Shown here piece after piece: positions 42,936 to 43,248 of a DNA stretch of 64,000 nucleotides. The first letter of the stretch is position 1, and each line of letters starts with the position of its first letter. A program made the translations under genes and the position numbers. The notes under the pieces were generated by a model. That model was not told where the DNA came from. It ran no database searches and saw only the letters and a program-made list of their open reading frames with translations. Origin of the DNA: a virus; IMG/VR virus record IMGVR_UViG_3300035696_000017, positions 1-64,000 of that record, one strand, 5' to 3'.

Positions 42936-43248
42936 CATCGACCGTCCAACCGTCCCGGTGAGGATGTCACTCCTCACACCTACCTCGTGTCAGTCACGTT
43001 GTTCCGTCACATGGCTCAGATGCTAGCTAGGCACCCTCAACACCACGGCGGGATTTTACCCGCATGCACCCAAGCTCTGACCGTTAGTAGGTCGGTGCAC
43101 CATCCCGCTGCCGAGTAGGAAACTGCCTGATCGGTGCGCTAATGACGTTACGCTTCCACACGCATCGGACCTGACCAGTTTCCGGTGCCAGTGCCTTTCC
43201 CCGAGCAAGGGATGGGCTTTCAGCCACGTGACGGTCGGACGGTCGATG
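42936..43248 (-). ncRNA. Candidate large structured ncRNA (~313 nt)
   Basis: 19-nt terminal inverted repeat CATCGACCGTCCGACCGTC/GACGGTTGGACGGTCGATG, many internal helices, between two tRNA-Pro genes. Confidence 0.65.

Follow-up and report, generated by a model that had tools for sequence, protein, structure and literature searches.

A large pseudoknotted noncoding RNA, probably of a new family, in the transfer RNA arrays of uncultivated jumbo phages from soil and peat

Large, intricately folded RNAs of undetermined role are rare, and RNase P RNA, tmRNA, OLE, GOLLD, ROOL and raiA each opened new biology. GOLLD (RF01998) and ROOL (RF03087) are encoded by phages and prophages, often in or beside islands of transfer RNA (tRNA) genes; they are large, pseudoknotted and 'ornate', have no known protein partner, and form symmetric kissing contacts through apical loops that are conserved or switch between palindromes; in GOLLD and OLE these contacts are supported by the switching of the palindromes (PMC12286853). 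Here we describe a noncoding RNA (ncRNA) of 315 nucleotides (nt) that lies between two tRNA-Pro genes in a 64,000-nt stretch of viral DNA (positions 1 to 64,000 of IMG/VR virus record IMGVR_UViG_3300035696_000017; hereafter the window) and includes a hairpin, Pg, with a palindromic loop. The ncRNA is of the same functional class as GOLLD and ROOL and is homologous to neither: no Rfam match at E<=10 points to homology in sequence or structure, and its 315-331 nt are half or less of their ~500-800 nt or more. Very probably the gene belongs to a previously undescribed family of large (~315-330 nt) pseudoknotted ncRNAs that uncultivated jumbo phages of soil and peat carry in their tRNA arrays, where 'undescribed' is relative to Rfam 15 and the 10,006 unnamed viral RNA candidates (PMC10690425) lie outside the comparison.

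The raiA motif RNA (RF03072) is likewise large and highly structured, with multi-way junctions, but occurs in the chromosomes of Firmicutes and Actinobacteria rather than in phage tRNA arrays. The ncRNA also resembles the stable RNAs C and D of phage T4 ('species 1 and 2'), small RNAs that are co-transcribed within a tRNA cluster and released by tRNA-processing enzymes; at ~120-140 nt these are much simpler, and homology to them is not expected. In the Escherichia coli 3' external transcribed spacer of leuZ (3'ETS-leuZ) and in MALAT1/mascRNA the ends are set by RNase P or RNase Z, brought in by tRNA structures on the flanks; these RNAs are short linear sponges or eukaryotic long noncoding RNAs, whereas the ncRNA is a compact 315-nt fold closed by a clamp of 17-21 base pairs (bp). 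Together with GOLLD and ROOL it provides a third unrelated fold linking ornate RNAs with phage tRNA islands, and thereby a comparative approach to why these arrays carry big RNAs. It is compact enough for probing and electron cryo-microscopy, and its secondary structure is already well constrained.

The locus and its homologues

The source record spans 114 kb (~31% complete), and its relatives are jumbo phages of 309-369 kb; among cultured phages no relative of the window was found at the DNA or protein level. The tRNA array of the window extends over 26.4-48.9 kb and comprises 35 ARAGORN-called tRNA genes, every one of them on the minus strand. The initial annotation, made from the letters of the window, had placed here an unassigned large structured ncRNA comparable to GOLLD and ROOL, between two tRNA-Pro genes of a phage tRNA cluster and devoid of a credible open reading frame (ORF). 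This description is borne out by the position of the flanking genes, by the lack of any Rfam match and by homologues with strong covariation.

42932..43246, minus strand: the whole ncRNA, 315 nt, placed by covariance model (CM) and homologues; RNA position p = 43247 - x for window position x
43247..43323, minus strand: upstream tRNA-Pro(ggg), whose 3' CCA adjoins the ncRNA and pairs with its 3' tail
42857..42931, minus strand: downstream tRNA-Pro(cgg), whose 5' end (RNase P site) would set the 3' end of the ncRNA

The last 6 nt of the ncRNA (42932-42937) form an unpaired, unconserved linker to tRNA-Pro(cgg). The ncRNA scores 373.9 bits (R1) and 368.9 bits (R2) against its own CMs. It folds with an energy of -143.2 kcal/mol, for which z is -5.3; the plus strand of the same stretch has z = -4.3. 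No reading frame is open across all homologues, no promoter-like or terminator-like site was found on the minus strand beside the ncRNA, and each genome examined (G000, G001, G004, G010) holds a single copy. The locus thus combines a phage record, a tRNA array, the lack of an ORF and covariation in 49 of 83 base pairs, the marks of a large structured phage ncRNA of tRNA islands.

Homologues were sought by way of a neighbouring DUF2201 protein, which led to related contigs, and then by BLAST, pattern scans and CMs. Nine distinct homologues, the window copy and eight others, were found in viral and metagenome contigs, all within tRNA arrays.

L035: copy in G004
L036: copy in G001, a complete 369-kb genome with terminal repeats
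L041: copy in G010
L061, L064 and L051: copies in three metagenome contigs
L093: copy in G012; L095 gives an equal score
L094:398-728: distant copy in G011, a 331-kb record

Occurrences to date are confined to jumbo-phage contigs from soil, peat and moss. In the seven close homologues with the 5' flank present, the ncRNA begins 0-1 nt past the called end of tRNA-Pro(ggg) or tRNA-Val(cac), and its position and synteny are fixed within the close set. The copies in the window and in G001 share 82% identity, above most flanking tRNAs, which are 61-74% identical (range 61-97%). A pattern scan of 185,579 prokaryote genomes returned 13 matching places, none of which was confirmed by CM. Pattern matches L042, L044-L050, L052-L059, L062-L063, L065-L066, L068-L083, L092 and L096-L099 were discarded as chance matches, likewise unconfirmed by CM.

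The distribution of the ncRNA is patchy, since G010 and G012, the more distant by their DUF2201 protein (54% identity versus 63% for G002), carry it while G002 lacks a copy. No copy was found in the more distant relatives G002 and G006-G009, and the syntenic slot of G002 gave no ncRNA when scanned with the full model. In this slot, after tRNA-Val(cac), an ORF of 233 amino acids is found instead (L005:12864-13565, plus strand).

A conserved fold with a five-way junction and a pseudoknot

The fold of the ncRNA is conserved across homologues. Thirteen helices make up the revised model, which includes one pseudoknot and a tight five-way junction: besides the terminal clamp P1, a 5' domain (H2) and pseudoknot Pa, the long-range helices Pb, B and C are stacked and lead into the junction of C, D/Pc, Pd, Pe and Pf/Pg, in which C, D, Pd, Pe and Pf are joined by linkers of 0, 1, 0, 0 and 1 nt, and hairpin Ph follows. 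In alignment A5, in which the nine sequences were fitted to the nested part of this model, 97.4% of positions are paired and 49 of 83 pairs show compensatory change, against 20.9 +/- 2.9 in shuffles and 5-11 with slid partners. In alignment A4, which had been fitted to an older structure and not to the revised one, 97.7% of cells are paired and compensatory change is seen in 30/83 pairs (shuffles 15.6 +/- 2.4; slid partners 1-8).

The first RNAalifold model, derived from three sequences (92% pairing, 26/105 pairs covarying), was partly wrong, in that its long local hairpin p72-123 and its helices 6, 8 and 13 fail in the tRNA-Val clade. The revised helices were found by an all-pairs covariation scan and a second alifold run. 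L094 was kept out of model derivation and constitutes the sole independent test. Every helix is formed in this sequence with different letters while the junction linkers are unchanged, and its score rises from 40.7 bits with the older model to 95.6 bits with the revised structure. Many conserved G-U pairs would become C-A mismatches on the opposite strand, and the functional strand is therefore that of the tRNAs, the minus strand. The elements of the fold are as follows.

43230..43246 (p1-17) with 42938..42954 (p293-309), minus strand: P1, the terminal clamp, 17/17 paired
43198..43212 (p35-49), minus strand: H2 hairpin, invariant in the close set; UACCG[UUCG]UGGUA in L094, with compensatory changes
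43176..43183 (p64-71, 5' strand GGAAACUG) with 43118..43125 (p122-129, 3' strand CAGUUUCC), minus strand: Pa, the pseudoknot
43159..43162 (p85-88) with 42986-42989 (p258-261), minus strand: Pb, long-range, 4/4 pairs covarying, 100% paired
p94-97 with p248-251 (42996-42999), minus strand: B, long-range
p100-103 with p239-242 (43005-43008), minus strand: C, closing the five-way junction; UGUU/GACA in L094
43102..43143 (p104-145), minus strand: D/Pc hairpin, its loop holding the 3' strand of Pa
p104-106 with p143-145, minus strand: D, AUU/GAU
p113-116 with p133-136, minus strand: Pc, CCGA/UCGG, 4/4 pairs covarying on A5
43064..43100 (p147-183; p147-153 with p177-183), minus strand: Pd, GUGCACC/GGUGCAU, 5/7 pairs covarying, 100% paired
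43048..43063 (p184-199), minus strand: Pe hairpin, 4/5 pairs covarying; loop UAAAAU in the window
43010..43047 (p200-237), minus strand: Pf/Pg arm, with Pf at p200-205 and p232-237 and Pg at p211-229
42958..42977 (p270-289), minus strand: Ph hairpin, 4/7 pairs covarying; conserved loop GUGAnn, GUGACA in the window

The terminal helix is 17-21 bp long, and in helix 1 (P1 and P1b, 19 pairs) compensatory change is seen in 10 pairs. In the window, 17 contiguous pairs are followed by two more that take in the CA of the tRNA's CCA; these correspond to the 19-nt terminal inverted repeat of the initial annotation and to its remark that the 5' end overlaps the CCA of tRNA-Pro(GGG). Hairpin H2 is preceded by invariant GUGGCU..AAA and followed by invariant AAGGCA. 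The pseudoknot Pa, whose 3' strand sits in the loop of hairpin Pc, differs between the window and L035 by two double substitutions, and L094 forms GAGUGUU/AACACUC at the same place, with 7/7 paired. L094 likewise has its own version of Pb, AGUA/UACU. The 5' strands of B and C (43144..43153, p94-103) fall within the near-invariant GGAAGCGUAACGUC, and their partner strands lie inside the invariant UGACGGAACAACG. In the tRNA-Val clade the CC..GG of Pc is swapped to GG..CC. Pd encloses a variable inner hairpin and reads AAGGUGCG/CGCACCUU in L094, and the loop of Pe is T-loop-like, UA(A/G)Ann. The Pf/Pg arm, with 5/6 pairs of Pf and 4/6 of Pg covarying, contains the invariant internal loop GUUGA(G/C)/GAG and carries the apical loop CUAGCUA at 43024-43030, which includes the palindrome UAGCUA. 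A kink-turn reading of the AA/GAACA internal loop was rejected, the tandem G-A pairs being missing.

The helices proposed in the initial annotation, written in plus-strand letters although the ncRNA is on the minus strand, fared unequally. Three agree with covariation-supported helices: TGCACC/GGTGCA with Pd, GCGGG-TAAAAT-CCCGC with Pe, and GTGAGGA/TCCTCAC with Ph. For GACC/GGTC a local hairpin exists, and its register is unconserved. The alternative 13-bp helix, GGCACC/GGTGCC and the long-range pairing CCTAC/GTAGG are unconserved and clash with covarying helices. The list had missed the long-range helices and the pseudoknot, which are not visible by eye.

Expression, ends and release from the array

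Six RNA runs contain part of the stretch, and contigs of 105-278 nt from four runs (three studies) aligned to the element at 90% likeness.

X5 (moss): a 271-nt contig, 99% identical, at 42952-43222, wholly within the element
X9 (soil): a contig covering 43024-43248
X10 (soil): contigs of 105 nt and 146 nt
X15 (soil): contigs of 278 nt and 218 nt

These contigs suggest an expressed RNA, as the initial annotation presumed, short of proof, since DNA can occur in such libraries. Cover of the flanking tRNAs and spacers by RNA contigs was almost nil, an observation given no weight here. The 278-nt contig of X15 is a closed 248-nt cycle in which G261 is joined to C14, and the X9 contig has a joint between position ~306 and position -1. 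These permuted joints of X9 and X15, at window 43024-43248 and 42941-42989, may represent circular RNA, concatemers or library chimeras.

The 5' end of the RNA probably lies 0-3 nt further upstream than modelled, within the CCA tail of tRNA-Pro(ggg). P1 runs on into the 3' tail of the tRNA that precedes the ncRNA: UG is the partner of the CA of CCA in the window and G001, and in the tRNA-Val clade a CCG tail pairs with CG or CGG, so that the extension of P1 covaries with the tail. This points to cleavage of the precursor at the discriminator base or immediately behind it, either by an enzyme of the RNase Z type or through trimming. At the other end, the next tRNA directly follows the modelled ncRNA in the window, L064 and L041, where RNase P would therefore make the 3' end of the ncRNA; in the other members it is 120-850 nt off, and another route to the 3' end must exist there. 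The ncRNA is probably released by tRNA-processing enzymes. It would be transcribed together with the tRNAs from the minus strand and excised by the enzymes that mature them, RNase Z or 3' trimming acting at the upstream tRNA and RNase P where the next tRNA adjoins; P1 might then shield the excised ncRNA and allow it to accumulate as a stable RNA.

The surroundings of two copies differ from those in the window. In G004, ~850 nt (L035:1816-2662, plus strand) stand as an insertion between the ncRNA and tRNA-Pro(cgg), which adjoin in the window. In G011, a weak tRNA-Sec-like match (L094:286-359, plus strand, 22.6 bits) that ends in CCACCA is found 38 nt upstream of the ncRNA, and a T-arm-like GGAGUUCGAUUCUCC downstream of it (L094:729-790, plus strand); neither has an ARAGORN call.

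The embedding of the element in the array, the pairing and covariation of P1 with the upstream tRNA tail and the fact that G002 manages without the element would also be expected of a cis-acting processing spacer, whose stem and fold merely help the neighbouring tRNAs mature, by presenting the CCA or a site for RNase III or RNase P, and whose excised piece is functionless. We regard this as improbable. With its ~300 nt, 13 conserved helices, pseudoknot and long single-stranded blocks that do not vary, the element far exceeds the needs of a processing stem, RNA-library contigs map on it, and the same RNA stands behind different tRNAs (Pro-ggg, Val-cac and the weak tRNA-like match in L094) in phages that have little else in common: G001 and G011, both of which carry the ncRNA, share only 13 ORFs (E<=1e-6).

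The closed cycle of X15 and the joint of X9 raise the question of whether the mature form is a circle and the core a ribozyme, catalysing for instance self-circularisation or RNA processing; the size of the ncRNA, its pseudoknot and its invariant junction nucleotides do recall large ribozymes. Both joints come from one 'random PCR' (polymerase chain reaction) library study, their junctions differ and the alignment was made at 90% likeness, whereas contigs of two other studies are without a joint. A 248-nt circle would also be without the conserved P1 and Ph, and group I and other ribozyme models are unmatched, which leaves the ribozyme or circle a quite improbable account. In particular, the element is no group I intron (RF00028), as it lies between complete tRNAs, gives no Rfam match and has a helix order unlike the textbook P3-P9 topology.

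Known families, possible partners and other features of the array

A scan of the window with the 4227 models of Rfam 15 at gathering thresholds, which include GOLLD, ROOL, OLE, tmRNA, signal recognition particle (SRP) RNA, 6S, RNase P, Y RNA/YrlA, group I and II introns and HEARO, found only tRNAs and RNase P elsewhere, and nothing at the ncRNA locus. At E<=10 the window copy, L041 and L036 gave noise of 9-14 bits or nothing. A targeted CM search for raiA (RF03072) in G000, G001, G010 and G011 left the element unmatched, the best match elsewhere reaching 7.1 bits (E = 1.7). The novelty of the element with respect to known families therefore stands, as does the remark of the initial annotation that signatures of tmRNA, SRP RNA and RNase P are missing, the ARAGORN and Rfam scans being null on the element.

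Several short words bring known families to mind and could point to a very divergent member of one of them (raiA, SRP RNA, Y RNA, RNase P RNA, tmRNA, GOLLD or ROOL). The sequence GGUCAGGUCCG equals the 5' strand of domain IV in the 4.5S RNA of E. coli, GGUC[C]GA is similar to a site bound by Ro, and GGGGAAAGG resembles conserved region I (CR-I) of RNase P RNA. Such kinship is very improbable in view of the null scans and of the fate of these words among the homologues. SRP RNA has no Rfam match, and the 11-nt likeness to it is absent from L094 and altered in L093; the GGUCCGA word of Y RNA/YrlA, likewise without an Rfam match, is unconserved in L094. Neither the SRP54 M domain in the phage genomes searched nor a TROVE (Ro60) domain in G000, G001, G002 and G010 was found. 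The bacterial RNase P RNA models (RF00010/RF00011) leave the element unmatched, and a genuine class A RNase P RNA sits 2.6 kb away, at 39985-40339. ARAGORN finds no tmRNA, and the lone Rfam tmRNA match (9.2 bits) falls on the T-arm of the adjacent tRNA-Pro. An 8-mer shared with the GTPase centre of 23S ribosomal RNA was discarded along with the SRP-, Y-RNA- and RNase-P-like words, all being unconserved in L094 or expected by chance.

A DNA-level element, either a transposon resembling a miniature inverted-repeat transposable element (MITE) or a recombination site, is barely credible despite the 19-nt terminal inverted repeat that bounds a ~313-bp unit, given a single copy in each of G000, G001, G004 and G010, a fixed position in the close set, compensatory changes in internal helices, G-U pairs workable on one strand only and no confirmed match in a bacterial genome.

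The presence of the ncRNA in jumbo phages with so few ORFs in common argues for a function independent of phage proteins. None of the 13 ORFs follows the distribution of the ncRNA, and a screen for ORFs shared by G001, G010 and G011 but missing in G002 gave no candidate, so a dedicated phage protein partner is unlikely; the phage RNase P RNA and the DUF2201 gene, too, are missing from G011. Probably the ncRNA acts alone or with universal host components; more tentatively, it would be an RNA-only particle or would work with universal host factors of the tRNA and translation machinery.

The ncRNA may also pair with itself through the palindromic loop of Pg, as GOLLD, ROOL and OLE do. The loop palindrome is UAGCUA in eight sequences, and its core AGCU is changed to GGCC in L094. 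These A-to-G and U-to-C changes compensate for each other only where one loop pairs with another, which makes self-association through this invariantly palindromic loop possible. The bolder view, that the ncRNA is a new self-assembling (Pg-loop dimer or oligomer) or catalytic phage RNA, and/or a circle as hinted by the two permuted contigs, that acts on the host tRNA or translation machinery without a phage protein, seems to us rather unlikely.

Several observations weigh against an undescribed family of functional ncRNAs as set out here. The nine sequences represent ~4 lineages, so that many compensatory cells are inherited together, and the revised helices were selected on part of the same data. 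The RNA-library contigs give neither strand nor ends, and library DNA could explain them. No tRNA adjoins the 3' end in L035, L061, L051, L093 and L094, hence RNase P cannot set every 3' end. The switch of the Pg palindrome is a single event and could also fit cis pairing of the loop to the UGGCU that is invariant in the 5' domain. G002 is a close relative with a complete genome and is without the ncRNA, which is thus dispensable for this type of phage. With these points taken into account, a new family of large structured phage ncRNAs is still the reading we consider very probable.

The class A RNase P RNA of the window is of full length (minus strand, 276.6 bits) and lies in the same tRNA array as the ncRNA. 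The complete relatives G001 and G002 have it as well; G010 has only a 21-bit fragment, and none was found in G011 and G012. In our literature searches no earlier account of an RNase P RNA encoded by a phage came to light. In phages with their own RNase P RNA, the locus is a natural system for the study of phage control over tRNA maturation.

Other parts of the array also deserve mention. Two of its minus-strand spacers, at 42142-42478 (337 nt) and 43657-43845 (189 nt), share 77-79% identity with G001, matching the conservation of many tRNAs, and could encode small ORFs or more ncRNAs. Two sites are possibly aberrant or decayed tRNAs: an Rfam tRNA match of 31.9 bits at 41737-41810 (minus strand) without an ARAGORN call, and an ARAGORN 'tRNA-???' with a 2-nt anticodon at 48786-48857 (minus strand). 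Midway through the array, at 32939-35141 on the minus strand, lie genes for an OmpA-domain protein and for a Phi_1/EXORDIUM-like (PF04674) protein.
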